A program made the translations under genes and the position numbers. A DNA stretch of 54,752 bases, counting the filler, from Jimgerdemannia flammicorona (lineage: Eukaryota), in the NCBI GenBank assembly GCA_003990765.1. It is 2 parts of 2 records of this genome, joined end to end, with 100 filler letters (N's around TTAATTAATTAA, not from the genome) between each part and the next. Parts side by side here need not be neighbours in the genome. Positions count along the whole stretch, not along the records: positions 27,432 to 54,752 come from RBNJ01000639.1; 1 more part is not named here. The stretch is one strand, 5' to 3'. Below are positions 218 to 54,752 of the stretch, in pieces. Position 1 is the first letter of the stretch, and every line of letters starts with the position of its first letter. The notes below the pieces were generated by a model. That model was not told the origin of the DNA and ran no database searches. It saw only the letters and a program-made list of their open reading frames with translations.

Positions 218-343
218 AACCAAATATTCCACATCTATCCATATATACTATATATTATCCTCCCGAACATTATAATTATTGCAAACCAAACCAAGAACTC
301 AGCAGAACAAAATTAGAAGGCCCTGACAAGGACGTTGAAAGCT

Positions 344-356
344 AAGAAGGGGAGAG
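344..356 (+). other. Polypurine tract (plus-strand primer)
   Basis: AAGAAGGGGAGAG followed by one T and then TGT at 358. Confidence 0.75.
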
Positions 357-7078: not shown

Positions 7079-7123
<45 letters not shown>

Positions 7124-8895: not shown

Positions 8896-8978
8896 GATAA
8901 TTTTTTTCTAGGTGAGTGGATTGTCTTGCAAAAGGAGGATGGATACGATGTGCGGGTGTAGACGAGATAAGGCCTCCT

Positions 8979-26340: not shown

Positions 26341-26380
26341 GATGATGGGATCGTTTGTGTCGGTGGGGTTGCTCCTCTGA

Positions 26381-26472
26381 GTGCAGTTCTTAAATGGATG
26401 CCCCCCGTCAAAAAATGAAACTGCGACTAAAACGTGCAGTTCTTAATGTATGCCCCGTCAAAAATGTAAAAC
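26381..26472. repeat. Imperfect tandem duplication (53-bp spacing) just upstream of the secreted-protein gene
   Basis: gtgcagttcttaaatggatgccccccgtcaaaaaatg at 26381 and gtgcagttcttaatgtatgccccgtcaaaaatg at 26434. Confidence 0.8.
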
Positions 26473-31161: not shown

Positions 31162-31173
31162 AAGTAAAAATGT

Positions 31174-33018: not shown

Positions 33019-34381
33019 TTGATGAAAACTCCGCAGAATTTGACGAAATTTGTTGTAGACTGTTACTAGACTCCTGCCGCACCTTGTACATCAGAATAGA
33101 TGATGGGAAAACTTGAAAACGTGTTACTTGTCATGAAAAGATGTCCATGTGGCTTAGCTTGCTCTGAATGGTTCGAGCAAAAGGAGTCCCCCTCTTCTTT
33201 GACTGGTCTCCTTTCTTCAGATCTCTCTTATCCTTAGAGGAGTCCTTGTAGGGCTTTGACTAGGATGTCTTCTTTATCTTCTTTCTTGTCATAATCACTC
33301 CAGATAGTTTCTTGTCTGACATCAAAAAATTCTTGGGCTGCATCTACTTACTCTTCAGACCTTCTGATGCCTAAGGTGCAGATATGCTGGGCAATGTTCA
33401 GAGAAATCCCATTCATGAAAGTCATTAGACCTATGATGTCCTGGTTAGTGGCATTGAACCCAGCAGCATGCATTCTCTTCTGGATTCTTATGAAGAAGGC
33501 TCTGAGTGATTCTCTAAGATTCATCTTCATCTCTATGATAGATTCTTGAGCCTTGTGGTGGGTTTCATTTCCTGCATATTTTTCAATAAGCCAGTGGACT
33601 ATGGCTACATATTCTAGCTCATAAGAAGCTGCTGCTTATATCTGTCTTGCCAGTTCTGAATGTGGGTCATTTGCTATTCAGTGGAAAATTCCTCTGACTG
33701 GTTCTCTGAGCTGGGCCTTATATATGGTGATTTGTTTTTATCTGAGAGATTTCTCAGAGCTATAATTCCTTCAATTCCATCAAGGAATTCTCTGGGGTCT
33801 TTCTCTGGATATCTTGCAAAAGTTGGCAGTGAGGTGGCCATTTCATCATCACTTCTGATTCTGTTTCTGGTCTGGATTCTGATTTGGATTCTGACTCTAA
33901 TTCACTTTCTGAACTATCACTAGAAATGGGGGTGCTGGGGTATTGTGAGGATAGTGTTCTGGACCTTGGACAAAGTAGGCTAAGCCTAGGTATTCTTATA
34001 GGAGCTACTTCCAATTCTGCAAGGGCTTGTAGTAAAGGTTCTATAGGTGAGATTGGTAGAACTAGTATGGGGTGTCTGGTTGTAAGATCTCAGACTTATA
34101 TAATGAGATCTTCTAGTTCTTGTGCAAGTTCTTCAAGATCTCCAGCAGGGCCACCTGTATTGTCTGGTTGATCTGGTGAGAGATTTTGGGCTATGCTGGT
34201 TTCTGGTTGAGATCCTTCTGATGCTGGGTAGTTTGTAAGTCTTGAAGTAATTACTTCTCTTCCTATTCAGATACTAGTGATAACTGGTTCTCCTGTAGTG
34301 GCAGAGATTGGTATTGTATCAAATGTATTCAGTTTGACTGTAGGTTTTTGTGAGCTGAAAAGTTATGTCAATTTTTAAATT

Positions 34382-34399
34382 TTCCCAGTTGAGCCCCCA
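34382..34399 (-). other. Primer-binding site, tRNA-Pro type (copy A)
   Basis: TGGGGGCTCAACTGGGAA 2 nt after the LTR end ACA; compare the classical Pro PBS TGGGGGCTCGTCCGGGAT, with two of four differences being CpG transitions. Confidence 0.75.
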
Positions 34400-34401
34400 A
34401 A

Positions 34402-35726
34402 TGTAACATACCCAGCTCAATGGAGATAAATTACAAGGTTGGGAGTTGGTGTAGTTTGACTTGAGCCCCTAGTTACTTTGTTAAAAAGTAACAAAATATT
34501 CTAAGATTCCTGAGATCCTTAGTGTTTAGTGATATAATAGTCAAAGCTAGATATCTGTGAGTAGTTTGTGTCTCATTTCCTAATTGGGACAGTTCTCTGG
34601 GTGTAGTGGTGATTTGTGTGTAAATGGGTTTCCTTCTTGAGTTAACTGGAAATTAGTAGAATTTCGTATATAGTATGACAATCTCCTTATATATGATGGT
34701 CTGATAATTTAGCAATTTTTCTTCTTGAGTAATAGTGATCTCTGTGTGATGATCTCTGTGTAATATGACAATCTCCAAAAGTATGCAATTTCTGGCTAGC
34801 AGTACAGTTTAGTGGACAACTCAGTTTAGATACAGATTCTCCTGAACTGGCTCACTGGGAATTATGCTCAGCGGCTTACAGAGAATAGAGGGTAGCATGA
34901 GTTCTTCTTACTGGGAATAATACTAGCAGCAGGTTCTTCTTGGGCTCACTGGGAATAAACTAATAACTTGGATATGATGGATTCTTCCTGAATCAGTGGG
35001 CTTTTGAGAAATAACTTGGATGTTATGGATTCTTTCTAAATCAGTAAGCTCTTCTGAGAAAAGTTCTCTTCTTGGCAAAGTTATATTAAAGACTGGCTTC
35101 ATTTGTGTGAATAAATTACTATGAAGTTGTATCAAAAGACTGGCTTATAGCAGGACTCTCTAGGAATATAGATAACTTGGAAATAGTAGCTTATTTCTTA
35201 AGTGACAGATTACTCAAAAGGTGGCAGAGTTCTTCAGACTTATCTGGTAAGTGAACCGAAAATGGACTCATTCTTTATATTGAGAGTGAGAAAGGAGCAA
35301 AGCTCACAATCTCCTAGTAGTGGCTATAGAGCAGGTGTTTCTCTTAAGTATTGTAATCCTTTCTGGATCAAGTTTTTTTTGGCAGACATATCTCTCAAAG
35401 TATAGTAGACAGACTTGTCTTTTGCTTTGTATTTCAGAACTGAGGTTTATTCACTCTTATCTTTGGAGTATTTTATATATTCTGGTTGCTATTTAATTAC
35501 TATCTGGATAATTATAGATTTACTATTTCTGGTAATATCTGAGTATGTCCATAGGACATAAGTATGTCTACAGAACATAAGTATATCTACCAGACACAGG
35601 TGTGTCCTCAGAACACAGATAAACAACCCTGATCTGATATTCTGACTAATTATAAGTGTGATATATATGAGTAGTTATGCTGGGTGTTTATGTCATCTTG
35701 CTATATTATATTATTTACTTGTCACA
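34402..35726 (-). repeat. 5' LTR of copy A (~1.33 kb)
   Basis: TGTAAC...GTCACA boundaries; TATA ~35475 and AATAAA ~35450 on the minus strand; 19-bp repeat array 35543-35618. Confidence 0.8.
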
Positions 35727-37185
35727 CTACTTTTTATTAGCTCAAAAGTATTTTGCTAACTAGTTGTAGATGACAGATTACTGAAAGTAGAACTAGTACT
35801 AGTGGATTTGGTAGTAGATATATATATTACTCAGATCTTCTATATATATTACTTATATAAAGAATATTTTACTGCTATTATCAGTTTCACAATATTTGTA
35901 TTATTATACTTTTCTATACTTCTATAGATCTTTCTACTGCCTCTATATTACCAATGCTAGCCTCTATATTACTTAATTTTACTACTCTTCTTACCATTTT
36001 CTCACTAATAACCATAGTGTTTTCTATGTCTATACTTATTATAATATTTACAGTAACTATTATACTTAGTTAATTGACTACTATTATATTGATTTTGGAT
36101 TTGAATTTGCTGGTCTTCCTGTCTATTATCTATGCTGACTTTAGTCTTATTTACTACCATATTTATAAGACTTATAGAAGACTATTTATTATCATTATTG
36201 CTATTGTTTCTTTGATATATTTTCTCATTTATATATAAGATTTATTATAATGTAAGTATAGTTTGTAAGCTTACATAGCTATAATAATTATATTATATAC
36301 TTCTGAGAGATCTTTTGTGAATATCAGGATCTTGTTCTTATTGCTAATATAATTTATAGATATATTGAGAGAATTTACTTAATTTACTAGATTATTGATA
36401 TAATAATTTAATATAGAAACTTAAATATAATAATTCTATAATACTCTCCACACCTTATAGGCTATTATAGTATATATTACAAGCTTTATTTGTGAGTTTG
36501 ATAGTATGAATATGATCTCACATAATACTCAATAATCATTTATAGTATTACGATCTTGAATTTGTACTTATGACTTTATATAATCTGCCAAACCATATTT
36601 GTTAAGGAGATTTCATATATAGAATATAATCTTTTCTATCAAAAATTAGGATAGACCTCTTGGCTGTATTTATACTAACAATTAAGACTAAATTTTCTAT
36701 AATAGTATCTATTATTACTAAAATACTTATAATTATAATATCTATATTACTAAAGTTACTAGATCAATCATCATTTGATATTTTAGTATATATTATTATT
36801 ATTATATATATATAGCTTATAGATTATAAATTTCATATATTACTAATAAATAATATAAAACTGATGAGATGGTATAAGTTATGTATATATTAATATATTG
36901 AGTTACTATCTTAATATTATAAAATACTCAAATAATATAGTCCTTACATTAAAGATAGAAACAAATCTCTTAGCCTTATTTATACTAATAATTAGGATAA
37001 TATTTCTCATAATAATAGTATCTATAGTTATAATAGAGACTGCTTCTATTATTATCAGAATATTTACAATTAATATATCTATATTACTAAGCTGATTTTG
37101 ACTTATATTTATATTGTGATCTATATATTATATTATAGTATATATTAGAGAGATATATATTATTATAGTTATTTCTGCTTAATAC
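35727..37185 (-). mobile_element. Extremely AT-mutated Ty1/copia-like gag relic
   Basis: Minus-strand translation (~36700-36200): IFDRKDY..KYGLADYI..VLCEIIFILSNSQIKLVIYTIIAYKVWRVL..NKNKILIFTKDLSEVYNIIIIAM; reversing transitions gives copia-gag motifs FDG.DY, GL..YI, TA.EVW..L, D..K....L...Y. Confidence 0.55.
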
Positions 37186-38519
37186 TATAATGTGTCTGGC
37201 TCAATAGAGGTAAATTATAAGGTTGGGGATTAATATAGTTTGGCTTAAGCCCATAGTTACTTTGTCAAAATTAACAAAATATTCTAAGATTCCTGGTATC
37301 CTTATTGGTGTTTAGTGGTACATATATAGTTAAGTCTAGATATAATAGTTAATTTTCTGATTGAGATGGTTCTCTAGGTATAGTAGTAATTTATATATAT
37401 ATAATAGATGATTTGATATAGCATAACAATCTCTATATAGTATGGTGATCTTCTTATGTATAATAGTCTGACAATTTAGTGGTTTTCCTTCTTGAGTGAT
37501 GGGTGATCTCCAAAAGTATATAATTTCTGTATAATAATCTTATATAGTATAATGAGTTTCCTCATATAAGTTGATTAGGTAATTTGACAGTTTCTATATA
37601 TAGATTTCTTGAGAATAGCAGATGACTTGGTTTGGCACAGATTTTTCTGAATTGGGCTCACTGGGAATGGATGAATAACTCAGATCATGTGAATAACTCA
37701 GATAACTCAGAGAGTGGATAATTCAATAATTCAGATATAGATAATTTAATAACTTAGGTAAGGATAATTCAATAACTCAAATAACTTGAGATATTACAGA
37801 CTCTTCTTGAATCAGCTAGATTTGGGGAAATAACTTGAATTCTTACAAAGACTGACTTCATTTGTATGGGGTTATGTCATAGACTGACTCTACTATGAAG
37901 TTGTATTAAAAGACTGGCTTATGGCAAGGTTCTTTAAGACAGACTCTCTGGGAATGGTAGCAAATAACTCAAAAACAGTAGCTTATTCCTTAAGCAGTAG
38001 ATTACTCAAATAATGACAAAGTTCTTTACTTGAACTTAGTGGATTTCTTCAGACTTATCTGATAAGCAAACCAAAAACAGACTCATTTTTTATATCAGAA
38101 AGTAGACTAGAGTGAAAAAGAAATGCTTTGCTCACAATCTCCTAGTAGTAGCTATAGAGTTCCTCTTAAAGTATAGTAGACAGACTTATCTTTTGCTTTG
38201 GGATTCACTTTTGGACTGAGGTTTATTTACTCTTATCTCTGAGGTATTTTATACAGTTATGGTTACTATCTGGTTACTATATTGCTAACTATAGATTGCT
38301 ATTTATAGTAAGTATTCCTAGATGGTACAGTGTACCCACTCAGTATAGTATACTTACTCAGTATAGTATACCCATTTGGTACAGGCAAACATACTGTTTC
38401 TGATATCTCTAACTAATTATATAGATTAGTACAGTAAAGCAGTCTTGGTTGCTTAGTATACTAGATATAGTATATGGCTAATTTATGATTTTAGTGGTAC
38501 AATTCTATTACTCATCACA
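37186..38519 (-). repeat. 3' LTR of copy B (~1.33 kb)
   Basis: TATAAT (decayed TGTAAT) to CATCACA, adjoining PPT AGTGGGGGCTGA (38520-38531); 18-bp repeat array 38324-38384. Confidence 0.8.
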
Positions 38520-38559
38520 TCAGCCCCCACTAAAGAATGGTCTGCTCTCAGACAATCCT

Positions 38560-39090
38560 TTAGTCATTATTCTAATGTGTATAAGCATCTTCAGCATCAA
38601 TATCTAAACTGATATCTTCATTGGGATCAGAGTCACTCCACTTGACAGATTCTTCTTCTTCCTCTGTAAACAGGATTTTGACATGGTTGATAATACTTCA
38701 GTAGGTGGTGGGATTCATGTTTTGTTTATCATTCAGAGAGAATTAGACCTATATTAGTACTGGAATATTTTATTTGTATATTGTGTATAATCTGTCTACA
38801 GTAGTGGTGATTTTGTGAGTGAGGCCAGTGGAGTTTCTGATATTGGTTAGGTCTACTACTGGAAGGTTCTGCAACTGTTCTTCAATTGTATAATAGGTCT
38901 ATAGCTGGTGGACTTATAGTAAATATCTAGTCAGGATGAGGTTCTCCTGATGGATCTAGATTTGCTGAAGGGGGTTTCTATTGGCTTATTGGAATTGTAA
39001 AAGGAGAACTGGAAGTGATTGAAATAAACTCAGAACAAGGGTCTAGAGGTACTGATCAATTGTCTAGTTTATAGTGAGAGAGGTATATCT
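38560..39090 (-). pseudogene. Post-integrase accessory ORF, copy B
   Basis: ...HQENLILTRYLL*VHQL*...LQNLPVVDLTNIRNSTGLTHKITTTVDRLYTIYK...FSLND...ILFTEEEEESVKWSDSD...NND*; aligns codon-wise with copy C. Confidence 0.7.
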
Positions 39091-41944
39091 TGAGGCAGTT
39101 GATGTATACTAGTGTCCTATGGGGTTGTCCATCTATGTTTCTTAAATAGATACTGGTTCCTCTGATATTATGTATAAGATAAGGTCCTTCTCACTTAGGC
39201 TTCAGTTTGGTGGCAAAATTTATTTCAATCATGCTTCTCCAAACTAGTACTTGATCTCCAATCTTGATCTCCTAATCTTTCTACTTCTGATCATAGTTCT
39301 TCTTTTGTCTTTCTTAGGCTTTGATAATCTGAACTCATGCTTGATTACATAACAGTTCTGTCTTCTTAAGGAGGTCTCCAAGGTTCTCATAGTCAGCAGT
39401 TCTGGTTTTTTTTGCAAACATTATCTCAAATAGCTTTTGTTTGATAGAGGCAGCAGGAGTATTCTGAATTTCCCATAGGATCTCAGGTAAGCAGAGGTCT
39501 CAGTTGATAGAGTTGACTTGGGTAAGTTCTTTTTTGATAGTCTGATTCATTCTTTCTGTTATACCATTAGTCTGAGAGTAGTAGAATATAGTCTATTTGA
39601 GATGGATCTTGTAAATTTGGGCATAACTTGTGATTATGTTATTGATAAATTCTGTGCCTTAGTTAGATATGAGTTCTTCTGGGGGTCTTTATCTGAGTGT
39701 GAGTCTATGGAGAAGGCCTACAATAGTCAAGACATCTGTGATTTCAATTGGAAAAGCCTTAGGCCACTTGGTCAGATATTTAACAAATACAACAATATAC
39801 TTATTTCTTCTTAATATAACTGGTAGGAGTCCAATTACATCTACTCTCTATCTCTGAAAGGTGTTGTCTGGTGGTATGATTGGTTACAGTGGTGCTTGAT
39901 AATTCTTTCTTCCTTAGTACTTCTGATATATATCACATTTCTTAAGTATATTCCAGACTTATATTCTGAGATTGGTTCAATGTTGGTATATTGTTTGCAG
40001 CTTTTCTTCTATATTTGTCTGTTCTTGATGGGCTTTCTGATGTTCTTTTTGAATGAGGTCTTCTTATGTCTTAATAGTTAGAAGAGCTTCCTTTAGGATA
40101 TAGTTCCTTAGAACACTCTTTTTCTGGTTTATTGTAGCTGGTGGGAAAGTACATTAATATTGTTGTGAGCTTTCCCTGCTTTGTGAATAATGGTGATTTT
40201 GTAATCCTAAAGAATAATGATCCAGTGGGCTAGGATTCCAATAGGTTTCTTGCAGTTGAATAACCATTTGAGGGCTGTATGGTTAGTTATCAGAGTGAAC
40301 CTTTTACTGATAAGATAATGCTTGAACAAAGTGACTGCCCATATAACTGCAAAGCATTCCAATTTGGTGCTACTATAGTTTATCTGCTGCTGATTGGTAG
40401 CTCAGCTTGTATAAGCTATTATATAGTACTATTAGTCAGGTCTTTCTTGGGCTAGAACTGCTCCTAGACCATCTTTGGAAGTATCTGTATATAAGATGAA
40501 TGGCTTCTATAGATTGGAGCAGACTAGGATTAGTGCTGTAGTTATGCAGCACTTGAGTTCCTTGAAGGCTAGTTCTTGTGATTCTGTCTATTTATAAGAT
40601 ACTCTTTTCTTAAGAAGGATTCAAATTAGGATAGCAATTTAGGCAAAGTCCTTAATAAACCTTCTGTAGTAAGATACTAGTATTAGGAAGAATAGTATTT
40701 CTTTCAAGGTCTTAGATACTAGCCAATTGTTGATCTTCTCAGTTTTCTTTGGATCTATATGGGTTCCTTCTTTTGAAACTATAAATCCAAGGAATTCAAG
40801 TTTCTGTTTCCTGAAGTAGCATTTCTTAGCATTGAGTCTCAGGTGGTTCTTATTGGTGAGCTTGAAGAATTCTTCTAGATAGTGCAGGTATTTCTCAAAA
40901 TTCACTGAATAGATGTATGAATAATTTATGTATATAATCAGGCAGTAGTAGATCAGAGAGATATAGACTGAATTCATTATCCTCTGGAAGGTGGGGGGTG
41001 TATTGCAAAGTCTAAAGAGTATTCAGAGGTATTTAAACAGTTTTTCTAAAGCAAGAAAGGCTGTCTTTTGAATGTCTTTTAGGTCCATGGGGATCTCATG
41101 GAATCCTACAAAAAGGTCTATACTGCTGAAGTATCTGGTATCTTGTAACTGATCCAAGAGGTCATTGATTCTGAGCAAAGGATAGGTATCCTTTTTGGTA
41201 ACTGAATTGAGTTTTCTATAATCTATGTAGAGTCTCCATCCTCCTTTCTTTAATATAATAAGTATAGGGCTGACCCAAGGACTAGTTGAGAGTTGGATGA
41301 CTCTATTGTCTAAGAGTTCTTAAATATACTCCTTTTTGAATGTCTTTAAGTAATGAGATATTCTATAGAGTTTCTGTCAGATGGGTGTTATGTTTCCTAT
41401 ATTTTTACTATAGTAATATGATGGGTTATATGGCAGGTTGCCATAATTAGTAGTAAAGATATCTTGATATTTGTTGAGGAGTTTTACTAGTTGTTGCCAT
41501 TGTGGGGATATCAATTCTTCTTTAATATTAGTATAAGGCTTCACTGTCTCCTGGGTCACAGAGGGATCTTTTTTTTCTTCTGAGATCTTTTGCCATTTCC
41601 TGATAGGTTCAACTCATAGACTTCTCTATAGGTTTGATTGAGAAAGGGCACTAAATGTCCTATGATGGTTCCTTTTACAAAATGATACTTTCCCAGCTCT
41701 AGTTGGTTGCTCAGAAGTGCACTGGATTCATCTTATCAGAAAATGTGTATCCTTCAATATTCAGGTTCAGGATGTCTTCATTGAATTCGAAGAAGAGATT
41801 TCTGAGATTGAGTGGTACAAAGATTTTGAAGGTGGTTTGCTCTCCAGACTCCAATGAGATTCATGTGCAGTTTGACTGGTTGGTGGTATACTTACTGGGG
41901 AACATTCCTCTTGAGGTGATTGATCCAAAGGAGATATACTTCCT

Positions 41945-42360
41945 TTTTATCTGAGCTTCCAAATCCTTCAGCTTGTCTTATTCCTTTAGTTAGTTTGGAG
42001 ACTTCTCATAATTGTGGGGTCTTGACCTTCATGAAGACTACTTGAGCAATCTTTTGTCCTCTCAAGATTCAGTACCATTCTGCACTACTATTGTACAGGA
42101 TGACCTTGATTTCACTTATGTATTCTGGATCAATGATTTCTCCTTCTACAGTTATTCCTTGTCTGGCAAGTCTAGACCTTGAGGTCAGTTATATGTAGGT
42201 TTCTTGGAGTGATTGCATGACTAGTCTGGTTCTGATCATCAGTGTTCTTTCAGGCTTGATGGGTTCATCCTCCAGACTATGAAGGTCATACTCTATATCT
42301 TCTTGATGAGCTTTGGTCGGGGGTTTGGCCTTAGGATGTAGCAGGGCAAACTGGGCAACA
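41945..42360 (-). pseudogene. dUTPase domain in pol, copy B
   Basis: YDLH, RSRLA, IIDPEYISEI, GQKIAQ, RQAEGFGSSD. Confidence 0.9.
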
Positions 42361-45129
42361 TCTTTGCCAAGTTTGGACTATCTTTAGGCTAAAGCTCTAC
42401 TAGCAGAGAGTCTCCAGGCTCTGAGGTTGAGGTGTGGCCATCTGGCTCCATTAGAGAGGTCTTGGAGATAATTGATTTCTCTTTTTCCTATAGGGGCTAG
42501 GACTTCTATGAAGTTGGTGATATCTTCTACCCATCCTTAGTGGGTTATATATCTGATAGGAGCTAGGATGTCTTCTCCTAAATCATAGATCTTGAGGGTC
42601 CTTCTTTCTGACTTCTTGGTCTGACTTTTTTAGATCTGGCCTCTGTTATCTCCTTTCTTCAAAGTGTAGATTACAACATTATAACTGAGGTGAATTTTCC
42701 AATATCTGCTGTCTTGACAGTCTGAGTGTCTTCTATAGTTATAATATCCTATTGCTTGGAAATACTATTTCCAGTTATTAATCTCTTGTTATCTTAGGAA
42801 TCAGTATTCATCTTGATCATAGGTTAGGGGAAGGGTGGACAGGAGATATACTTCTGTTTGGGTGAAGAGACCTTATCCTCTAAATTGACTTTACAACTTA
42901 GTGGTAACTTCTTAGAAAGTAGTTGACTGTGTAACTATAGTTGGGGGTTCTAATTTTCAGAATCTCTGTCTTTCTTATTAGTCCAATATATGGTACTGAT
43001 AGTAGTAGTCTTGAGGAGAGTGGAAGACTATTTGATATAGACATCTTCCTAGCCAAAAAGCTCTTTCTTGGTGTATTTCTTACTTTAGAGTAATGGAGAT
43101 TATACTGGGTCCTTCTTTAGTATTCCAGGGGTCATTATTCTCAGGTGGTGTCCAGCAAGGATCATCCCAGGCAATGAGTTTGGGAATTTCTTCTTCTTCA
43201 GGCACTTCTTGTTTAGAGATCTCCTGTTTAGAGGTTTCTCCTTCCTCAGATAATTCTTGGTCTCAAATTGCTTGTACTTCTGCAGCTTCAGCTACAGGTG
43301 TCTCTGAAACATGTCTGTATTTCTTCTTCTTTCTTCTATACTTAAGGCAGGCTATGTCAGGTGAATTCCTTATTCCAATGATCTTGGAGAAGTGCTGAGG
43401 ACACTTGTATCTCTTGAGGCAGGTGAGGTATTCTTTGATTTCTCCTGCAATGGCTCCAATAGTGATGGGGATAGTGTTTTTGACCCACATATTGTCTTTT
43501 GGTCTGTCATCTACTAGATTGATTCAGGGATTGAGTCTGGGATTGTTTCCATCTTTGGATTCTTCTTTTTCTTCTGTAGTAGATTCTTTACTACTGATAT
43601 ATTTCTCCTGGATAGTGATCTTCTTCTTCTTCTTTGATTACTTATAGCTAGTTATCTTAACTCTGTACTTCTTGTCTCAGTAGTTAAACTTGAGTACTTG
43701 TTTACTAATATCAATAACTACATTCATTTCCTTCATTCAGTTAGTGCCAAGAATTATGTCATAAGTAATAGTGTCAGTGACAATAGCTTTCAGAATAGAG
43801 AATTGAATGTATCTAAGAGAGATAGTGATATTTCATACTTCTCCAAGGGGTTGAGTTTGGGCTCCATTTATTACTATGATACTGAGATTGGATGGTCCAT
43901 CAATAGACCATTAGAGGGTATCTAGAAATCATTCAGCAATGACACAGATAGCTACTTCTGTGTCTATGAGGATTTTTGCCTTTTATCCTCTAATATCTTC
44001 ATATAAATAAATGCTGACATATCTTTCTACAGCCTGGATAGGGATGGGAGCTGGCTCTTGCTGTGGGACTGAAACTTGGCCAGTGCTAGACCTGGTGGTC
44101 CTCATAATTTATTTTAAACTCTAGCTAATATCAGTTACAGGAACTGCAGGAGAGGTATCTCTATTTTGGCTTCTTGGATTTTCTGCCAGACTTTATTGTA
44201 GATGTCTCTGGGTATAATCTTTGGGATGTACTTCTTCTTGGGGCAGGTTTCTGTTCTTCTTGCTCCATTTCTTTATCCTCTGGAGACAGCTCATTTGTCT
44301 TATGGACAAAAGGTGATAGAGATCAGAGAGGTATTTCTACTTGCTCCTCTTTATCTTACTCTTGGATTCTTCTGCTGATATTTCTGGATGACCTTCCTAT
44401 AGGTCTCTTCCTCTTCTCTACTGGGTAAACTATCTTTCAGATAGTGACTTTGGCTGGATACAAGTCCAGGTCATTGTAGTCTTCACTGTTGCTTTTTTTC
44501 TCAAAGTCTTTGATGGGATGGGCTTCAGTCTTCTTATACTGGGTTTCATTTCTTTGGTTTGGTGGTTCTGAGTCTCTTCAGTTACTTCTTCTGTTATCAC
44601 ATTCAGTGGCATAGTATCCAAATTGTCTACAGTAGAAGCATTGGACTTGGGCTCTGTCTCAGAGTATCTTCTTTCTTCTTGCTGGTAGTTTTTATTATCT
44701 CTTGATAAATAACCTTGATTTCTCTATAGTGGATATCCTCTATTATATTGTTGATAACTCTAGTTTTCATATATAGTGAGTTTTTCAATCTTTCCAATCA
44801 ATTGGTCCAACTTAGAACTAAGGTCTTAAATTTCACTCTTGTTCTTCTTTCCTTCTTTGGCTGGTCTTCTTTCTTCAGATCTTTTCTGTCCTTAAAGAAG
44901 TCCTTGTAGGGCTTTGACCAGAATGTCTTCTTTGTTATCCTTCTTGTCTTGGTCACTCCAGGTAGTTCCTTATCTGATATCAAAGAATCCTTGGGCTATA
45001 TCTACTTACTCTTTAGACCTTCTGATGCCTATAGTATAGACATGCTGGACAATGTTTGGAGAAATTCTATTCATAAAGGTCATTGAACCTGATGTCTTAG
45101 TTGGTAGCATTGAATCTGGCTGTATATAT

Positions 45130-46547
45130 TGTAATGTGCCTGGCTCAATGGAGGCAAATTACAAGGTTAGGAGTTGATGTAGTTTGGCTTGAGCCCCCAG
45201 TTACTTTGTCAAAAAGCAACAAAATGTTCTAAGATTCCTGAGGTCCTTGGTGTTTAGTGGTATAGTCAAAGCTGGATGTCTGTAAGCGATTCTGGCGATT
45301 TCCTTATTGGATTGGTTCTCTGAGTGTAGCGGCAGTTTGTGTGAATGGGTTTTCTTCTTGGGTCAACTGGGAATGGCAGAATTTATGTGTAGTGTGAACA
45401 GTTTCCTTCTTGAGTAGTGGGTGATTTCCATGTAGCATGATGATCTCTGTACATAATGGTCTAGCAATTTAGTAGTTCTCCTTATGTGATTTCTGCATGG
45501 TAATCTTATGTAGTACAGCAATTTCTAAAAATATGTGATTTCTGGCAGATGGCTTGATTTGGCATGGCTTCCCTGAAATGGCAGCTTACTGGGAATTATA
45601 CTGGTGGTGGATTCTTCTCGGACTCACTGGGAATGATGAATAACTCAGATGTTACAGATTTGTCTTCAACAGGGAATACTACTCAAATGGCGTGAGTTAT
45701 TCTGAATTGGGCTCTTCTGGGAATGTGGATAACTTAAAAATAGCAGATGATGCAGATTCTATTAGGAGTTAACTTGGATTCTTGGCAAGTTACATCTAAG
45801 ACTGGCTTTGTTTATATGGGGTTATGTCATAGACTGGCTCTACAGTGAAGTTGCATCAGAAAGACTGGCTTATGGCAAGAATGGCAGCGAAAACTTGAGT
45901 TCTTCAGACTTATCTGATAAGTGTACCAATAGTGTGGCTTATTCCTTAAGCAGCGGATTTCTCTTCAAAAAGTGGTGAAGTTCTTTCTTGAACTTTTGGT
46001 GGCAAATTTTCAGACTTAGTCTGGTAAGTGTACCAATAATTCTAAAGGCAGTGAAGTTCTTCACTTGAACTTGGTGGTGAAATCAGCTTTGTATCGGAAA
46101 GTGGACCAGAGTGGGAATAAGGGGACCAATGCTCAATCTTTAGAGGCTTCTTTGATTTGTACTTCAATTCAGATTGAGGTTTATTCACTCTTGTCTCTGG
46201 GGTAATTTATACAAGTTGGTTGCTATCTAGTTGCTATGTGGCTAACTATAGATTTACTACTTCTGGTAATGCTTAGGTGTGTCCTCTGAGTATAGGTGTA
46301 TCCACAGGACATGAGTGTGTCTATAGGACATGAGTATGTCTGTAGGACATAAGTATGTCTGCAGGACATAAGTGTGTCCTCAGGATATAGGTAAACAATC
46401 CTGATCTGGTGTCTTGGCTAATTATAAGTGTGGTGGGCATGGGTAACTATGATACTCTGGAAGTCACATCATGCTGAGTAAGTATGCTAATTGTTTGCAT
46501 CATCTGGCTAAGTTATAATTCAGATGGTATGTTTTGGCCTTATTATA
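45130..46547 (-). repeat. 3' LTR of copy C (~1.42 kb)
   Basis: TGTAAT...TATTATA (decayed CATCACA); PPT AGTGGGGGCTGA at 46548-46559; TATAAA ~46208, AATAAA ~46183, 19-bp array 46277-46390. Confidence 0.85.
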
Positions 46548-46586
46548 TCAGCCCCCACTGAAGGGTAGTCTGTCCCAGACTAATCT

Positions 46587-47117
46587 TCAGTCATTATCCC
46601 AATAGGCATAAGTAGCTTCTGCATCTATATCTGTTCCATCATCATCATCTGTGCTATGGTTACTCCATTCCAGGGGCTCTTCTTCTTCCTTGGGGAATAG
46701 GATCTCCACTTAGTGAATGATGCTGAGGTAGGTAAGCAGTATCATTCTTTGGAGGTCATTCAGGGAGAACTGGGCCTGGATTAAGGCAGAAGGATTTCAT
46801 TTGTATATTGTGTATAGTCTGTCTGCAGCAGTAGTATTCCTTCTGTTCAGGCCAGTGGTGTTACAGACATAGGCTAGGTCTGGGAGAGGAAGATTCTGCA
46901 ATTGTTCTCTAATTGCATAGTATGCCTATAGCTGGTGGACCTGGAGTAACCTCTTGGCCAAAGTGAGGTTCTCTTGATGAACTTGGATTTTCTGAAGATA
47001 TGTTCCATTGGGTTTCTGGAACTGAGGCAGGGGAACTGGTAGGGCTTAGAGGGAACTAAGGACAAGGGTTTGAAGGTGGTTGTCAATTCTCTGGTTTATG
47101 GTGTGAGAAGAGATATA
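46587..47117 (-). pseudogene. Post-integrase accessory ORF (~175 codons), copy C
   Basis: One frame without indels: HTINQRIDNHLQTLVLSSL*ALPVPLPQFQKPNGTYLQKIQVHQENLTLAKRLLQVHQL*AYYAIREQLQNLPLPDLAYVCNTTGLNRRNTTAADRLYTIYK*NPSALIQAQFSLNDLQRMILLTYLSIIH*VEILFPKEEEEPLEWSNHSTDDDGTDIDAEATYAYWDND*; internal stops are consistent with C>T; start codon not identified. Confidence 0.75.
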
Positions 47118-48100
47118 TCTTGAGGTAATTGTTGTGTACTGGTGTCTTCAGGGTTCATCCATCCATACTTTTTAAATAGATGCTGGTTCCTCTAATGTTA
47201 TGTACAAGATAAGGTCCTTCCCATTTGGGCTCCAATTTGGCAGCAAAATTTGTTTCGATCATGCTTCTCCAAACTAGTACTTGATCACCAATCTTGATCT
47301 CCTGATCCTTCTGTTTCTGGTTATAATACTTCTTTTGTCTTGAACTTTGATAATCTGACCTTAGGCCTGATTATATATCTGTTCTGCCTTCTTGAGAAGA
47401 TCTCTGAGGTTCTCATGATCACCAGTTCTCGTTTTTCTGGCAAACATCATTTCAAAGGGCTTTTGTTTAGTGGAGGCAGCAGGGGTGTTCCGAATTTCCC
47501 ATAGGATCTCAGGTAAGCAGAGGTCTCAATTGATAGTATTGACTCAGGCAAGTCCTTTCTTGATAGTCTGGTTCATCCTTTCTGTCATACCATTGGTCTG
47601 GGGGTAGTATGATGTGGTCCATTTGAGATATATCTTGTGAATTCGAGCATAAATTGTGATTATGTTATTGATGAATTCTGTGTCTTGGTCAGAGATGAGT
47701 TCTTCTGGGGGTCCATATCTGAGTGTGAGTCCATGGAGAAGGCCTACAATGGTTAGGGCATCTGCAATTTCTATTGGGAAAGCCTCAGGCCACTTGGTCA
47801 GATGTTCTACAAATATAAGAATGTATTTTTTTCTTCTTGGTGTAACTTGTAGAGGTCCAATTACATCTACTCCCCATCTTTGAAAGATGTGAGTGGGTGA
47901 GGGAATCAGTTGTAGAGGGGCTTGATAGTTCTTCTTTCCTTGGTACTTCTGGCAGGTGTCACATTTCTGAATGATGTCTCAGACTTGAGTTCTGAGGTGG
48001 GGCCAATGTTGATATTGTTTTCGAATTTTGTCTTCTGTGCTTGTCTGTCCTTGGTGGGCTTTCTGATGTTCTTGTTGGATGAGATCTTCTTGTTCCTTGA
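47083..48100 (-). pseudogene. Integrase (zinc finger, DDE core, GPY/F), copy C; no chromodomain
   Basis: WPHL...CDTCQK; WGVDVIGPL; YYPQTNGMTERMNQTIK; KLEPKWEGPY. Confidence 0.92.
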
Positions 48101-48169
48101 TAGTTACAGGGACTTCCTTTAGGGTGTAGTTCCTTGGGACACCCTTCTTCTGGTTCATTGGGGCTGGTG

Positions 48170-49400
48170 GGAAAGTACATCAACATTGTTGTGGGCTTTT
48201 CCTGCTTTGTGAATAATGGTAATTTTGTAATCCTGAAGGATAAGGATCCAGTGGGCTAGAATTCCAGTGGGTTCCTTTTAGTTGAATAGTCATTTGAGGG
48301 CTGTATGGTCTGTGACCAGAGTGAACCTTTTTTCAATGAGGTAATGCTTGAACAGGGTGACCACCCATATGACTGCAAGACATTCCAGTTTGGTGCTACC
48401 ATAGTTCATCTGCTGCTGATTGGTAGCTCTGCTTGCATAAGCCATCATATAGTGCTATTGGTCAGATCCTTCTTGGGCTAGAACTGCTCCTAGGCCATCT
48501 TTAGAAGCATCTGTATACATGATGAATGGCTTCTGTAGATTGGAGTACATAAGGATTGGTACTGTAGTCATGCAGTTCTTGAGTTTTTTAAAGGCTTTTT
48601 CTTGCGATTCTGTCTATTTGAATGGCACTCCTTTCTTGAGAAGGATTCGGATTGGGGCAGTAATTTGGGCAAAATCCTTGATAAACCTTCTATAGTAGGA
48701 TACTAGTATCAGGAATGATAGTGTTTTCTTTGGAGTCTTGGGTACTGGCCAATTGTTGATCTTCTTGGTTTTCTTTAGATCTGCATGAGTTCCTTCTTTT
48801 GAAATCATAAATCTCAGGAATTCAAGTTTCTGTTTCCCAAAGTAGTATTTCTTTGCATTCAATCTCAAGTGATTCTTACAGGTGAGCTTGAAGAATTCCT
48901 CTAGATGGGGCAGATGTTCTTCGAAATTTGCTAAATAGATATTAGAATCGTCCATATATACAATTAGGCAGTAATGGATCAGAGGAGCATAGACTGAATT
49001 CATCATCCTCTGGAAGGTAGGGGGTGTATTGCAAAGTCCAAAGGGCATTCAGAGATATTTGAATTTTTCTAGAGCAAGGAAGGCTGTCTTTTGAATATCT
49101 TTTGGGTCCATGGGGATTTTATGGAATCCTGCGAAGAGGTCTATATTGCTGAAGTATCTGGCATCCTGTAACTAATCCAAAAGGTCATTGATTCTGGGCA
49201 GAGGATAGGCATCTTTTTTGGTAACTGCATTGAGTTTCCTATAATTCACACAGAGTCTCCATCCTCCTTTCTTTGGTACAATAAGTATAGGGCTGGCCCA
49301 GGGGCTGGTAGAGGGTCGGATGACCCCATTGTTTAAGAGTTCTTAAATGTGCTCCTTTTCGAATGTTTTCAAGTAATGGGGTATTCTATAGGGTTTCTGC
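48170..49400 (-). pseudogene. Reverse transcriptase and RNase H, copy C
   Basis: SPWASP, MPFGLCNTPPTFQRMMN, YMDD, SYYRRFIKDFA; RH YTDASKDGLGAVLAQ, TDHTAL. Confidence 0.95.
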
Positions 49401-49974
49401 TGGATGAGTGTTGTATTTCCTGTATTTATGCTGTGATGATATGATGGATTGTATGGCAGGTTGCCATAATCGGTGGTAAAGATATCTTGATATTTGTTGA
49501 GAAGTTCTACTAGTTGTTGCTGTTGTTGGGGGGTCAATTCTTCTCCAATGTTGGTGGAAGGTTTCACTGTCTCCTGGGTCGCAGAGGGGCCTTTCCTTTC
49601 TTCTGGGACCTTTTGCCATTTCCCAATAGGTTTAGTTCATAAACTTTCCTATGAGTTCAGTTGAGAAAGGGCACCAGATGTCCTATGATGGTTCCTTTGG
49701 GCAAGATGATGGTCTCCCAACTTTGGTTGGTTGCTTGGGAGTGTACTGGGTTTATCTTGTTGGGGAATGTGTGTCTCTTTATGTCCAGATGGGGAATATC
49801 TTCCTTGGGTTCAAAGAAAAGGTTTCTGGGGTCGGGTGGTCCAAAGATTTCAAAGGTTGTTTGTTCTCCAGGCTCTAGGATAAGGTTCTTGTACAGTCTG
49901 ACTGGTTGCTGGTACACTTGCTGAGGAACATTTCTCTTGAGGTAGTTGACTTGAAGGCGGTGTACTTCCTTTCT

Positions 49975-50385
49975 GTCTGAACTTCCAAATTCCTTGGCTT
50001 GTCTTGTTCCTTCAGTTAGTTCAGAGACCTCTTGTAACTGTGGGGTCTTGACTTTCATGAAGACTGCTTGGGCAATCTTCTGTCCTCTAATGATTCAGTG
50101 CTATTCTGCACTACTGTTGTGTAGGATAACCTTGATTTTGCCTGTATATCCTGGGTCAATAGTTCCTCCTTTCACAGTTATTCCTTGTCTGGTAAGTCTG
50201 GACCTTGAGGTCAGTTGGATGTAAGATTCTTGAGGTGGCTGTATTGCTAACCTGATTCTGATTATGAAGGTTTTTCCAGGTTTGATAGATTCATCCTCCA
50301 GACTGTGAAGATCATACCCTACATCCTCTGGGTGGGCTTTGGTTGGGGGTTTGGCCTTAGGATGTAGCAGGGCATACTGGGCAAT
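49975..50385 (-). pseudogene. Trimeric-type dUTPase domain between PR and RT, copy C
   Basis: KPPTKAHPEDVGYDL (motif I), SRSRL (II), GGTIDPGYTGKI (III), GQKIAQ (IV), RQAKEFGSSD (V). Confidence 0.93.
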
Positions 50386-51343
50386 GTCCTTGCTGAGTTC
50401 GGGCCATTCTAGAGCTGAGGCTCCACTAGCAGAGAGCCTCCAGGCTCTGAGGTTGAGGTGTGGCCATCTGGCTCCAGTGGAGGGGTCTCAGAGATAGTTA
50501 ATTCTCCTTCTTCCTATAGGGTCTAGGGCTTCCATGAAGTTGGTGGCATCTTCTGCCCATCCTTGGCAGATTGTATGTCTGATGAGAGCTAGGATATCTT
50601 CTCCTAAATCATAGATCTTGAGGATTCTTCTTTCTGGCTTCTTGGTTCAGCTTTTTTTGGATCTGACCTCTGTTGTCTCCTTTCTTTAAAGTATGAACTG
50701 CAACATCATGACTGAGGTGAATCTTCTGATGTCTGCAGTCTCAGCAGTCAGGGTGTCTCCCATGGTTGCAATATCTCATTGCTTGGAAGTGGTGTTCCCA
50801 GCTATTGATCTCTTGTTGCCTTAGGAATTGGTACCCATCTTGATCATAAGTTGGGGGAAGGGTAGACAAGGGATATATTTCTGTTTGAGTGAAGAAGCCT
50901 TGTCCTCTAAATCAACTTTGTAATCTTGTGGTAACTTTTTGAAAGGTGGTTGACTGTGCAAGTGTAGTTGGGGGTTCTGGTCTCTGGGGTCTCTGTCTTT
51001 CTTGTTGATCCAACAGATGACACTGATAGCAGTAGTCTCTGGGAGAGTGGAAGGCCATTTGGTATAGACACCTTCCAAGCTGAAAAGCCTTCTCTTGGTG
51101 AGTTTCTTTCTTGGGAATAATGGTGATTATACTGGATCCTTCTTCCATATTCCAAGGGTCATCATCTTCAGGTGGTGTCCAATGAGGATTATCCCAAGGA
51201 ATGAGTTCAGGGACTTCTTCTTCTTCAGGTGCTTCTTGTTCAGGGACTTCTTGATCAGAAGTTTCTTCTTCCTCAGATGATTCTTGACCCCAGATTGCTT
51301 GTACTTCTGCTGCTTCAGTTGCAGGTGTCTCTGGAACATGTCT

Positions 51344-51457
51344 GCATTTCTTCTTCTTCCTTCTGCATTCTGAGCAGGCTGTGCCAGGCAATTTCCTTGT
51401 TCCCATAATCTTGGAGGAGTGCTCAGGACACCTGTGTCTCTTGAGGCAGATAGGGCA
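51344..51457 (-). other. Zn2Cys6-like six-cysteine module in the polyprotein
   Basis: CPICLKRHRC-x17-CSECRRKKKKC; the homologous segment in copy B (43316-43430) shows C>Y transitions. Confidence 0.55.
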
Positions 51458-51699
51458 TCCTTTGGCTTCTCCTGCAATAGCTCTAATGGTTATGGGAATG
51501 GTATTCTTAGCCCATACATTGTCTTCTGGTCTGTCATCCACCAGGTTAATTTGGGGATTGAGTCTGGGATCATTTCCATTTTCGGATTCTTCCTCTTCTT
51601 CTGTGGTAGATTCTTCACTACTGGCATATTCTTCCTGAATAGTAACCTTCTTCTTCTTCTTTGATTGCTCATAGCTAGTCACCTTAACTCTATATTTCT

Positions 51700-52050
51700 T
51701 GCCTCGATAATCAAACTTGAGTACTTGTTGGCCAATATCAACAACTGTATTCATTTCCTTCATCCAGTTGGTGCCAAGAATCATGTCATAGATGACAGCT
51801 TTGGTGACAACAGCTTTAGGGATAGAGAACTAAATGTGTCCAAGAGAGATAGTGATATTCTGTACTTCTCCAAGGGTTGAGTTCGGGCTCCATCTGCTAC
51901 TATAATGCTGAGGTTGGATGGTCCATCAATGGGCCATTGAAGGGTGTCCAGAAACCATTTGGCAATGACACAGACAGCTGCTCCTATGTCTATGAGGATC
52001 TTCGCCTTTTGTCCTCCAATATCTCTATGTAGGTAGGTGCCGACATGTCT
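51700..52050 (-). pseudogene. Aspartic protease, copy C
   Basis: ILIDIGAAV (copy B LIDTEVA, consensus DTGA), IIVADG, ILGTNW. Confidence 0.85.
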
Positions 52051-52639
52051 TTCAGCTGCCTGAATAGAGATGGGAACTAGTTCTTGCTGTGGGATTGGGA
52101 CTCGGCCAGTGCTAGACCTGGTGGTTCTCAGCAATTTGTTTTGGACTCCAGCTGGTATCAGTTGCAGGAACTGCAGGAGGGGAACTTCCATCTTGGTCTC
52201 TTGGATCTTCTGCCAGGCTTCATTGTAGATGTCTCTAGGCATGGTCTTTGGGGTATACTTTTTCTTGGGCTTTGGGGCAATAGGTCCCTATTCTTCTTGT
52301 TCCATTTCTTCATCCTCTGATGGCAACTCATTTGTCTTGGGAACAAAAGGTGAGGGGGTTCAGGGAGGTGTTTCTACCTGCTCCTCTTCATGTTCTTCAT
52401 CCTCCTCTTGGATAATTCTTCTGCTGATGTTCCTAGATGGCCTTCCAACAGGTCTCTTCCTCTTCTCTGCTGGATAGACTGTTTTTTGGGTGGCAACCTT
52501 GGTAGGGTACAAGTCTAGATCACTGTAGTCTTCACTGTTGCTTGTTTCCTTGAAATCTTCAACAGGATGGGCTTCAGTTTTCTTGTACTGAGGGTCATTC
52601 CTTTGGTTCGGTAGTTCTGAGTCTCTTCGGTCACTTCTT

Positions 52640-54060
52640 TTGTTGTCACATTCAGTGGCATAGTGTCCAAATTGTCCACAGTAGAAGCATTGAACTTGAG
52701 CTATCTCAGACAGGGTACCTTCTTTCTTCTTGCTGGTAATTCCTGTTATCTCTTGGTAGATAACCTTGGCTCCTCTGTGGTGGGTATTCTCTATTATCTT
52801 GGTAGCTCTGATTTTCACATGTGGTGAGTTTTTCAATCTGTCCAACCAATTGGTCCAACTTGGAGCTGAGGTCTTGGATTTCACTTCTGTCCTTCTTTCC
52901 TTCTTTGGCTGGTTTTCTTTCTTCGAACCTTTCTTGTCCTTGCAGGAGTCCTTGTAGGGCCTTGACCAGGATGTCTTCCTTATCTTCTTTCTTATCATGA
53001 TCACTCCAGGTAGTTCTTTGTCTGATATCAATGAATCCTTGGGCTGCATCTACTTGCTCCTTAGACCTTCTGATGCCTAGAGTACAGACATGTTGGGCAA
53101 TGTTTGGATTCTATTCATGAAGGTCATTGGACCTATGATGTCCTGGTTGGTGGCATTGAATCCAGCTGCATGCATTCTCTTCTGAATTCTTATGAAGAAG
53201 GCCCTGGGTGATTCTCCAAGATTCATCTTCATCCCCATGATGGATTCTTGAGCCTTGTGGCAGGTTTCATTTCCTGCATACTTTTCAATGAGCCAGTGGA
53301 CCATGGCCTCATATTCTTGCTCTTCAGACATTGCAGCTTATATCTGTCTTGTCAGTTCTGAATCTGGATTGCCTGCTGTTTGATAGAAAATTCCTCTGGC
53401 TGGTTCTCTAAGCTGGGCCTTATAGATGGCGATTTTTCTTTTATCTGAGAGGTTCCTTAGAGCTGCGATTCCTTCGATTCCATCAAGAAATTCTCTGGGG
53501 TCTTCCTCTGGATATCCTGCAAAGGTTGGCAATGAGGTGGCCATTTTGTCATCACTTTCTTCTGATTCTGGTTCAGGTCCAGGTTCTGATTCTGGTTCAC
53601 TTTCTGAGCTGTCACTGGAAATAGGAGTGCTTGGGTATTCTGAGGATGGTGTTCGGGACCTTGGATGAAGTAGAATAGGCCTAGGTATTCTGGTAGGAGC
53701 TATTTCCAATTCTTCAAGAGTTTGTAGTAAGGGTTCTATTGGTGAAATTGATGGGACTGGTATGGGGTGTCTGGCTTTAAGATCTCGGGTTTATGTAATA
53801 AGGTCTTCTAATTCTTGTACGAGTTCTCCGAAATCTCTGGTGGGGCTGCCTGTATTGTCTGGTTGATCTGGTTGGGGATCCTGGGCTGTACTGCCTTCTG
53901 GTTCTGGTTGGGATCCTTCTGATGCTGGGTAATTGGCAAGTCTTGAGGTAATTATTTCTCTTCTTGTCCAGATACTGGTGATAACTGGTTCTCCTATAGT
54001 AGCAGAGATTGGTGTTGTATCAAATGTATCCAGTTTGACTGTGGGTTCTTGTGAGCTGAA
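52640..54060 (-). pseudogene. gag with CCHC zinc knuckle, copy C
   Basis: LPTFAGYPEEDPREFL gag motif; CFYCGQFGHYATEC; stops and frameshifts. Confidence 0.9.
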
Positions 54061-54082
54061 AAGTCATATTGATTTTGAAATT

Positions 54083-54100
54083 TTCCCAGTTGAGCCCCCA
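54083..54100 (-). other. Primer-binding site, tRNA-Pro type (copy C)
   Basis: TGGGGGCTCAACTGGGAA 2 nt from the LTR terminal ACA; identical to copy A. Confidence 0.78.
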
Positions 54101-54102
54101 AA

Positions 54103-54660
54103 TGTAATATGCCTGGCTCAATGGAGGCAAATTACAAGGTTGGGGGTTGATGTAGTTTGGCTTGAGCCCCTAGTTACTTTGTCAAAAAGCAATAAAATGT
54201 TCTAAGGTTCCTGAGGTCATTGGTGTTTAGTGGTATAATAGTCAAAGCTGGATGTCTGCAAGCGATTTTGGTGATTTCCTTAGTGAGATGGTTCTCTGGG
54301 TATAGCGGCAGTTTGTGTGAATGGGTTTCCTTCTTGGGTCAACTGAGAATAGCAGAATTTATGTATAGTGCAAGCAGTTTCCTTCTTGAGTAGTGGGTGA
54401 TTTCTGTGTAGTGCAAAGATCTCTTTACATGATGGTCTGGCAATTTAGCGGTTCTCCTTATGTGATTTCTGTATGGCGATCTTGTGTAGTGTGGCAATTT
54501 CTAAAAATGTGCAATTTCTGGCAGATGGCTTGATTTGGCATGGCTTCCCTGAAATAGTGGCTTACTGGGAATTATACTGGTAGTGGATTCTTCTTGGGCT
54601 CACTGGGAATGATGAATAACTTGGATGTCATGGATTCAGCTTCAACTAGGAATACTACTT
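54103..54660 (-). repeat. 5' LTR of copy C (partial)
   Basis: Colinear with 45130-45680, differing mainly by transitions. Confidence 0.9.
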
Positions 54661-54752
54661 GAGGGGGGGTCCTTGTGGGATAGGTTGAGGGTTCAGGATA
54701 TATTACTCTTACTATAGACACATTAATAAAGGGAGTCCAAGTGACTATAAAA
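54661..54752 (+). mobile_element. Severely 5'-truncated LINE 3' end inserted in the LTR
   Basis: Ends AATAAAGGGAGTCCAAGTGACTATAAAA, matching the 3' terminus of the LINE at 27432-27462 (reverse complement); preceded by a GVLVG*-type ORF2 end. Confidence 0.8.

Follow-up and report, generated by a model that had tools for sequence, protein, structure and literature searches.

Several retroviruses encode small regulatory proteins 3′ of pol or in the U3 region of the long terminal repeat (LTR), among them Tas/Bel1 of foamy viruses, Sag of mouse mammary tumor virus (MMTV), and Nef of lentiviruses. Annotation of fungal LTR retrotransposons, for its part, usually stops at gag-pol, and additional genes escape notice, above all in mutated copies. 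Here, we describe an open reading frame (ORF), named ORF3, that follows pol in a Ty3/gypsy element of the fungus Jimgerdemannia flammicorona. The window analyzed is a stretch of 54,752 nucleotides (nt) from assembly GCA_003990765.1, composed of two parts of two records joined by 100 filler letters, with positions 27,432 to 54,752 derived from RBNJ01000639.1. It holds two copies of the element with ORF3 (B and C), a truncated third copy (A), and, at its start, the end of a chromodomain-bearing Ty3/gypsy element (a chromovirus) with an ORF of its own at 614-1711.

Plant LTR retrotransposons are well known to carry additional ORFs (aORFs) between pol and the 3′ LTR (PMC7264820). In fungi, a survey of Gypsy elements draws an "add. 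ORF" of unknown function (PMC2864245, legend of figure 3) and places a dUTPase between protease and reverse transcriptase in some basidiomycete gypsy elements, with an ascomycete case also cited. Boty/BcGypsy1 of Botrytis cinerea and Sclerotinia carries an additional gene, brtn (Zhao et al. 2011, as cited in PMC7264820 and PMC8365987). In bdelloid rotifers, ORF3 types are common to different retroelement lineages, which also encode a dUTPase (PMC5408684). The premise of the initial annotation of this locus, which limits Ty3/gypsy elements to gag-pol with an occasional env, is too strict in view of the extra fungal gypsy ORFs already published (PMC2864245, PMC7264820, and PMC8365987).

Results

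ORF3 lies between pol and the putative polypurine tract

We interpret ORF3 as a true accessory gene specific to one lineage, a Ty3/gypsy family that has a dUTPase and lacks a chromodomain and of which copies B and C are dead relics, and assign this reading a probability of roughly 60%. The features that define the gene and its borders are as follows.

46587-47099, minus strand: ORF3 of copy C, 171 codons including the stop, start codon ATA at 47099-47097
38560-39072, minus strand: ORF3 of copy B, in the same register as in C, with 11 internal stops and a terminal TAA
47083-47085, minus strand: TGA that ends pol in copy C, located within ORF3 (nt 15-17)
47100-48010, minus strand: integrase of copy C, with a zinc-binding domain (PF17921, E 6.7e-11), the rve core (PF00665, E 3.4e-6), and a GPY/F-type C-terminal module
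46551-46559, minus strand: putative polypurine tract (PPT), G-rich, which reads AGTGGGGGC on the element strand, precedes a TG at 46550, and is conserved between B and C

The initial annotation had noted an ORF of about 175 codons between the integrase and the PPT of both copies, in a frame other than that of pol. Translation of 46587-47117 and 38560-39090 gave back the frames first drawn, stops included. The placement and the off-pol frame stand, since the copies are colinear and, with respect to the final codons of pol, ORF3 occupies the +1 frame in C, in B, and in L001, a related metagenomic locus. The length is instead 171 codons, and the true start is codon 7 of the frame first drawn; this codon is ATA in C and B (39072-39070 in the latter) and ATG, preceded by ACC, in L001. 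In all three loci, the start falls 14 nt before the conserved pol stop, which makes ORF3 overlap the final five codons of pol. In B (39058-39056) and L001 as well, the TGA that ends pol falls on nt 15-17 of ORF3, giving an overlap of 17 nt. At its other end (TGA at 46589-46587 in C), ORF3 stops 27 nt upstream of the putative PPT. It thus takes up the entire interval from pol to the PPT on the sense strand, a layout common to C, B, and L001. The TG at 46550 probably represents the first bases of the LTR, although copy A is too decayed to fix this edge.

Relatives with open frames and decay of the window copies

Relatives of ORF3 were sought with a word-indexed search covering 5.8 billion proteins and with a profile search in which all 1.84 billion representatives were read. 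The first returned three relatives, P0002 (171 aa), P0003 (172 aa), and P0004 (137 aa), with E values from 2.5e-72 to 1.8e-52. The second added five further clusters (E 2.2e-58 to 3.3e-21) and no other relative at E up to 0.001. In total, eight database proteins with open frames are related to ORF3, and the copy C translation is 70%, 66%, and 70% identical to the intact P0002, P0003, and P0004, respectively. A methionine stands at one column, within the sequence M-[NT]-Q-R-[IV]-D, in all seven relatives that reach the N-terminus; P0005 was called from an ATG 41 codons upstream of this residue. A metagenome scan yielded one locus, L001, with the same arrangement of integrase, pol stop, and ORF3 and with an ATG start. 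Scans of viral contigs with two alignments found no relative.

Both window copies of ORF3 are dead. Copy C has internal stops at codons 18, 58, 101, and 130, and the internal stops are TAA or TAG facing CAA or CAG of another copy in 7 of 11 cases in B and 2 of 4 in C. One further stop of copy B is a TAG facing TGG, and codon 101 reads TGA or TAA at a position that is R or W in intact relatives; L001 also has TGA there. This pattern, with the start ATA facing ATG, indicates that B and C lost function through C>T/G>A changes at CpA/TpG-type sites, in agreement with the earlier proposal that C>T-type stops had caused ORF3 to be overlooked. The ATA start and the stops at codons 58 and 101 are common to B and C, with the identical stop codon at position 58, and these shared lesions may be either parallel hits or the result of shared descent.

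Substitutions are constrained in the ORF3 frame only

Over the 513-nt ORF3 stretch, copies B and C are separated by no indel at all (the sole indel nearby, of 3 nt, lies upstream of ORF3), and their translations are 56% identical (BLASTP E 2e-60). Differences between C and B at codon positions 1, 2, and 3 number 60, 33, and 71 (chi-square p 0.0009), and the ratio of nonsynonymous to synonymous substitution (dN/dS) is 0.25 in the ORF3 frame as against 0.60 and 1.66 in the other two frames. The corresponding counts are 34, 20, and 60 for C and L001 (dN/dS 0.20) and 41, 29, and 71 for B and L001 (dN/dS 0.17). Over the three pairs, dN/dS is low (0.17-0.30) in the ORF3 frame only, while it ranges from 0.60 to 1.74 in the other frames. 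As controls, the integrase-core block gave a dN/dS of 0.17 in its own frame, and three LTR blocks were devoid of codon periodicity (p 0.22, 0.50, and 0.61). Codon-wise conservation between the copies, as originally claimed, is borne out, and dN/dS among them is not near 1. The substitution pattern indicates that ORF3 evolved under purifying selection.

We considered whether there is no gene here, the interval being a noncoding spacer between pol and the PPT in which a chance frame persists simply through the duplication that links B and C. Counted from the corrected start, stops are similarly numerous in all three frames of copy C (5, 7, and 12), so openness alone would not reveal ORF3, and the shared ATA start and stops at codons 58 and 101 are also what such duplicates would display. 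This explanation is hardly credible, as it is already contradicted by the intact ORFs of 137-172 aa in independent database records, by the codon periodicity with low dN/dS confined to one frame, and by the flat LTR controls.

ORF3 is also the most diverged block between B and C, with 68% nt identity and a proportion of synonymous differences (pS) of 0.58 (46587-47099), compared with 82-86% identity in the pol blocks (47109-49363). This hints at faster evolution or at a separate recombination history of the ORF3 module.

Start of ORF3 and its relation to pol

Whether translation of ORF3 begins at an AUG of its own or continues from the integrase by frameshifting is in our view an even call. 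An own start in good context, the 17-nt overlap with pol, and the lack of a pol-fused relative fit a separately initiated small protein. Ribosomes terminating at the pol stop might reinitiate just upstream of it and so produce ORF3; alternatively, ORF3 could be translated from a subgenomic or spliced RNA.

The competing explanation is that ORF3 is a C-terminal extension of the integrase, produced through a programmed +1 frameshift where pol ends and serving as a targeting module in place of a chromodomain. It would account for the +1 frame and the overlap with the final five codons of pol seen in C, B, and L001, for the absence of a chromodomain from the element, and for the 41 open codons upstream of the methionine in P0005. 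However, the methionine occupies the same column in all seven relatives with an N-terminus and in L001, where it has an ACC-ATG context, and no frameshift site was identified. The frame upstream is closed in L001 and C, a weak argument given that both are decayed. None of the eight relatives from the word-indexed and profile searches exceeds 172 aa or is a pol protein; the profile search matches include no protein of pol length, and the word-indexed set was not searched for longer proteins. We consider a frameshift extension quite improbable.

The predicted ORF3 protein

A low-confidence AlphaFold2 (AF2) model of ORF3, based on a 10-row alignment, comprises six helices (residues 2-18, 34-68, 72-82, 86-100, 103-117, and 121-134) followed by disorder, and the Atlas model of P0002 has a predicted local distance difference test (pLDDT) value of 0.76 and a predicted template-modeling (pTM) score of 0.68. 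The body of the protein (residues 1-135) is basic, with an isoelectric point (pI) of 9.1-9.6. Its tail (residues 136-171) has a pI of 4.05, with 15-18 D/E, no K/R, and 3-4 aromatic residues, and terminates in Y-x-[YH]-W-D-D-D. It is a tentative proposal at best that the basic helical body would bind nucleic acid, or a partner in the particle or LTR, while the acidic aromatic tail would recruit host factors, which would make ORF3 a small regulatory adaptor, transactivator-like rather than structural or enzymatic. Of the transactivator or anti-silencing role suggested in the initial annotation, it can be said that this composition would be compatible with it.

The earlier view that ORF3 is not env-like agrees with its 19-residue hydropathy maximum of about 1.0. 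No membrane span was detected in P0002, P0003, or P0006 (maximum Kyte-Doolittle 19-residue mean 0.94-1.14; no dedicated signal-peptide predictor was used). A retroviral or errantiviral env-like identity was rejected, as ORF3 lacks a transmembrane stretch, a Pfam match, and a PDB sequence match below E 0.2. The ORF3 hidden Markov model (HMM), run against 499 ORF pieces of the window, gave nothing above 4.7 bits, and on this ground an origin of ORF3 as a diverged gag or pol fragment was rejected as well. The PDB sequence search with the profiles of ORF3 and of the ORF at 614-1711 had best E values of 0.21 and 0.14, both for unrelated proteins, and the Atlas feature neighbors of P0002 are unrelated clusters only. 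The Pfam and PDB searches gave no hit to a described domain; such a hit, like a dN/dS near 1, would have counted against the initial annotation by its own terms.

Several observations weigh against ORF3 as a genuine accessory gene. The family is tiny, at eight database proteins and one locus, and the range over which it is conserved is narrow. Its AF2 model is poor (mean pLDDT 43.8), no Atlas structural neighbor of the P0002 model exceeds TM 0.37, and no Pfam family was found for C, B, or P0002 at E up to 1 or up to 0.01. The frame open for 41 codons upstream of the methionine in P0005 makes a longer product or a frameshift fusion possible. Because the start and two stops are common to B and C, part of their divergence may postdate the death of the gene, in which case dN/dS would overestimate the constraint, not underestimate it. 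Finally, ORF3 is known here from sequence alone, and its function is inferred from composition only.

The element that carries ORF3

The following features place the ORF3-bearing copies within the window.

49660-50487, minus strand: dUTPase domain in pol of copy C (Pfam PF00692, E 1.3e-24), a lineage marker
45130-46550, minus strand: LTR between the internal regions of C and B (repeat families D2, D4, D15, and D16), acting as the 3′ LTR of C

No chromodomain is present in the copy C integrase, whose C-terminal module ends at a TGA. As the initial annotation held, the element is non-chromoviral, and the two lineages differ in that the element at the window start ends in a chromodomain. By coordinates, the dUTPase of copy C lies between a weak protease match (51784-52287) and an ORF on the reverse transcriptase side (48617-49048). 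Relative to B, copy C has a 4-nt deletion near 47335, which puts its integrase core and C-terminus in different frames.

Copies B and C span 37186-54752 head to tail with one LTR in common, in the order LTR, C internal region, LTR, B internal region, LTR. Homologous points of B and C are 8023-8049 nt apart through the internal region and 8973 nt apart at the LTR, from which it follows that B is short of about 0.9 kb at its 5′ internal end, on the side of the primer-binding site and gag, compared with C and A. Copy A (33086-35790), the third copy of the same element, is truncated and retains only the 5′ LTR and a gag-side part of the internal region. It is flanked by a non-LTR retrotransposon on its low-coordinate side and by a very AT-rich stretch (GC 0.21, 36001-37000) on the other.

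A possible counterpart in the chromovirus

The chromoviral end at the start of the window has the following features.

614-1711, plus strand: chromoviral ORF (hereafter, the 614 ORF), 366 codons including the stop, with three internal stops (codons 42, 269, and 323)
38-214, plus strand: chromodomain at the C-terminus of chromoviral pol (Pfam PF00385, E 3.9e-12), with the stop codon at 215-217
337-356, plus strand: candidate PPT of the chromovirus, purine-rich, with TG at 358-359

The 614 ORF begins 397 nt downstream of the chromodomain stop, and the other two frames of its interval are full of stops. Intact relatives, namely P0010 (N-terminal 128 aa, 86% identity, starting at the same Met) and P0001 (62% identity over the C-terminal 247 aa, or two thirds), show that it is also a real ORF. 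Searches with the 614 ORF, P0010, and P0001 found no Pfam family. Helices are predicted over residues 1-141, and acidic and aromatic residues characterize the part from residue 163 onward. Downstream of the ORF, TATAAATA occurs at 1902-1909. This sequence and the candidate PPT at 337-356, if the latter is real, suggest a position of the 614 ORF in the U3 region of the 3′ LTR, a placement that is unconfirmed: the window contains no second chromoviral LTR copy, and the search for a terminal inverted repeat marking the LTR end gave 79 matches versus 88 expected, nothing usable. Directly upstream of the chromodomain coding sequence, positions 1-38 are a run of about 38 A's, which represents either a linker of lysines within pol or an artifact of assembly or insertion.

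The initial annotation had aligned the N-terminal 120 or so residues of ORF3 with the 614 ORF by eye and proposed that the two lineages share an accessory family. Such remote homology, with one family carried by and passed between the chromoviral and the non-chromoviral Ty3/gypsy elements of one host, would be compatible with, and additional to, our reading of ORF3 as an accessory gene. The alignment was not confirmed in that form, for a window copy of ORF3 compared with the 614 ORF gave BLASTP E values of 0.14, 0.23, and 1.1 for three short colinear pieces. The signal is stronger with intact relatives, though still marginal: ungapped BLASTP matches in the same register (residues 23-70 versus 24-71) link P0006 with P0010 (E 5e-4) and P0004 with P0010 (E 0.002), and P0003 matches the 614 ORF from Met1 of both (E 0.015). 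Smith-Waterman z values are 3.2-5.8 for four N-terminal pairs, whose real scores were reached by between 1 and 32 of 3000 shuffles, but two full-length pairwise tests are weak, their local scores being reached by 198 and 367 of 3000 shuffles. In six of seven members, the real score is above the reversed-target score.

Profile methods divide in the same way. The ORF3 HMM scored P0010 at 8.5 bits, which was reached by 6 of 2000 shuffles, and reversed P0010 at 1.0. In the decoy test with 499 window ORFs, however, the 740-1405 piece ranked second with 3.9 bits, below the top decoy at 4.7 and not significant. Comparison of the two families with hhalign gave E values of 0.074, 0.012, and 0.0068 with probabilities of only 0.8, 3.5, and 5.6%. 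On the standard set by the initial annotation, for which sharing requires significant similarity between profiles, these values do not support the proposal. The local score (E 0.0068) of 23.8 was reached by none of 140 column shuffles, but the reversed template scored 21.5; in global mode, the reversed template scored 11.0 versus 8.2 for the real one, and 3 of 140 shuffles reached the real score.

Features of the two proteins are similarly mixed. The predicted helix limits are alike for ORF3 and the 614 ORF (2-18 and 3-20, 86-100 and 85-102, 103-117 and 104-113, 121-134 and 121-141), both ORFs are in sense orientation 3′ of pol, and in both the helices are followed by acidic aromatic sequence, so that the acidic tails originally reported hold for each. 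On the other hand, most invariant residues of the ORF3 family, such as the HQENL motif, have no counterpart in the 614-ORF family, and the YWDND match reads YWGEN in P0001. The charge of the bodies is opposed (pI 9.1-9.6 for ORF3, 5.3 for the 614 ORF). If the PPT at 337-356 is real, the placement also differs, the 614 ORF being in U3 and ORF3 upstream of the PPT. An Atlas feature search gave P0002 and P0010 the same top clusters, but these shared neighbors are unrelated prokaryote and virus clusters and the recognition value of P0010 is below the tool's bar, so a hub effect is the likely cause of the coincidence. Both AF2 models are of low confidence (pLDDT 43.8 for ORF3, 32.3 for the 614 ORF).

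Cross-lineage sharing of ORF3 is therefore not established and only marginally supported; we regard homology of the two ORFs as possible but doubtful. Going further, the sequence features could describe one accessory family that moves between unrelated Ty3/gypsy lineages of a fungus, lying upstream of the PPT in one and in U3 in the other, and that would encode a small regulator, with a binding body of helices and a recruiting tail of acidic and aromatic character, acting on transcription of the element or on silencing by the host. We consider this combined picture unlikely.

Other features of the window

Remains of non-LTR retrotransposons lie on the minus strand at 27800-33090 and 4336-5359, with an RVT_1 domain at 28786-29229 (E 5.2e-12) and an Exo_endo_phos fragment at 4336-4818 (E 2.7e-4); the 27800-33090 stretch has a strong negative GC skew (-0.31 to -0.50). 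A host copper amine oxidase gene of several exons occupies 7055-8907 on the minus strand, its N2 and N3 domains mapping to 8203-8907 and its enzyme domain to 7369-7701 and 7055-7399, and a long T/A homopolymer run is located near 7080-7130. Two open frames have no Pfam family: one of 720 aa at 21617-23776 (plus strand) and one of 274 aa at 25621-26442 (minus strand), whose N-terminus resembles a secretion signal.

Discussion

ORF3 provides a clean example of a selected orphan third gene of a fungal retrotransposon, with a defined start that overlaps the pol stop, and P0002 (171 aa) offers a concrete protein to probe for element regulation or host interaction. If the link to the 614 ORF were true, it would mean modular exchange of accessory genes between fungal gypsy lineages, as in rotifers; if the two ORFs were in addition a shared regulator, fungal retrotransposons would possess a retrovirus-style regulatory gene. 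The general impact is modest because the family is very small and its function is a proposal only.

Like Tas/Bel1, Sag, and Nef, ORF3 is small and encoded 3′ of pol (the 614 ORF possibly in U3), with an acidic region as in activation domains. No sequence or fold similarity to these proteins was found in Pfam, the PDB, or the Atlas, and the likeness comes from sequence features only.

Parallels also exist among retrotransposons. The placement of the dUTPase in copy C is that of some basidiomycete gypsy elements (PMC2864245). We found no described fungal sense ORF3 of this kind in the literature, on which the supplement of PMC2864245 on element structures may bear. Both ORF3 and brtn are additional to gag-pol in a fungal Ty3/gypsy element and sit between pol and the 3′ LTR; unlike brtn, which is antisense to gag-pol (PMC7264820), ORF3 is in sense orientation and overlaps the pol stop, the two being set apart here by description only. 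The ORF3s of bdelloid rotifers (PMC5408684) are a precedent for one ORF3 type across lineages of one host, but those proteins are clearly homologous (env-like, GDSL esterase, or DEDDy exonuclease), whereas the similarity seen here is marginal and the protein is an orphan and non-enzymatic. A further comparison is with the plant aORFs (PMC7264820), which resemble ORF3 in lying between pol and the 3′ LTR, in having copies conserved like a coding gene, and in lacking a recognizable domain. ORF3 differs from them as an orphan sequence family with no Pfam or PDB relative. In sense orientation between pol and the PPT or 3′ LTR and conserved as coding sequence, ORF3 is a real, selected, orphan accessory gene that belongs to the known class of retrotransposon aORFs.

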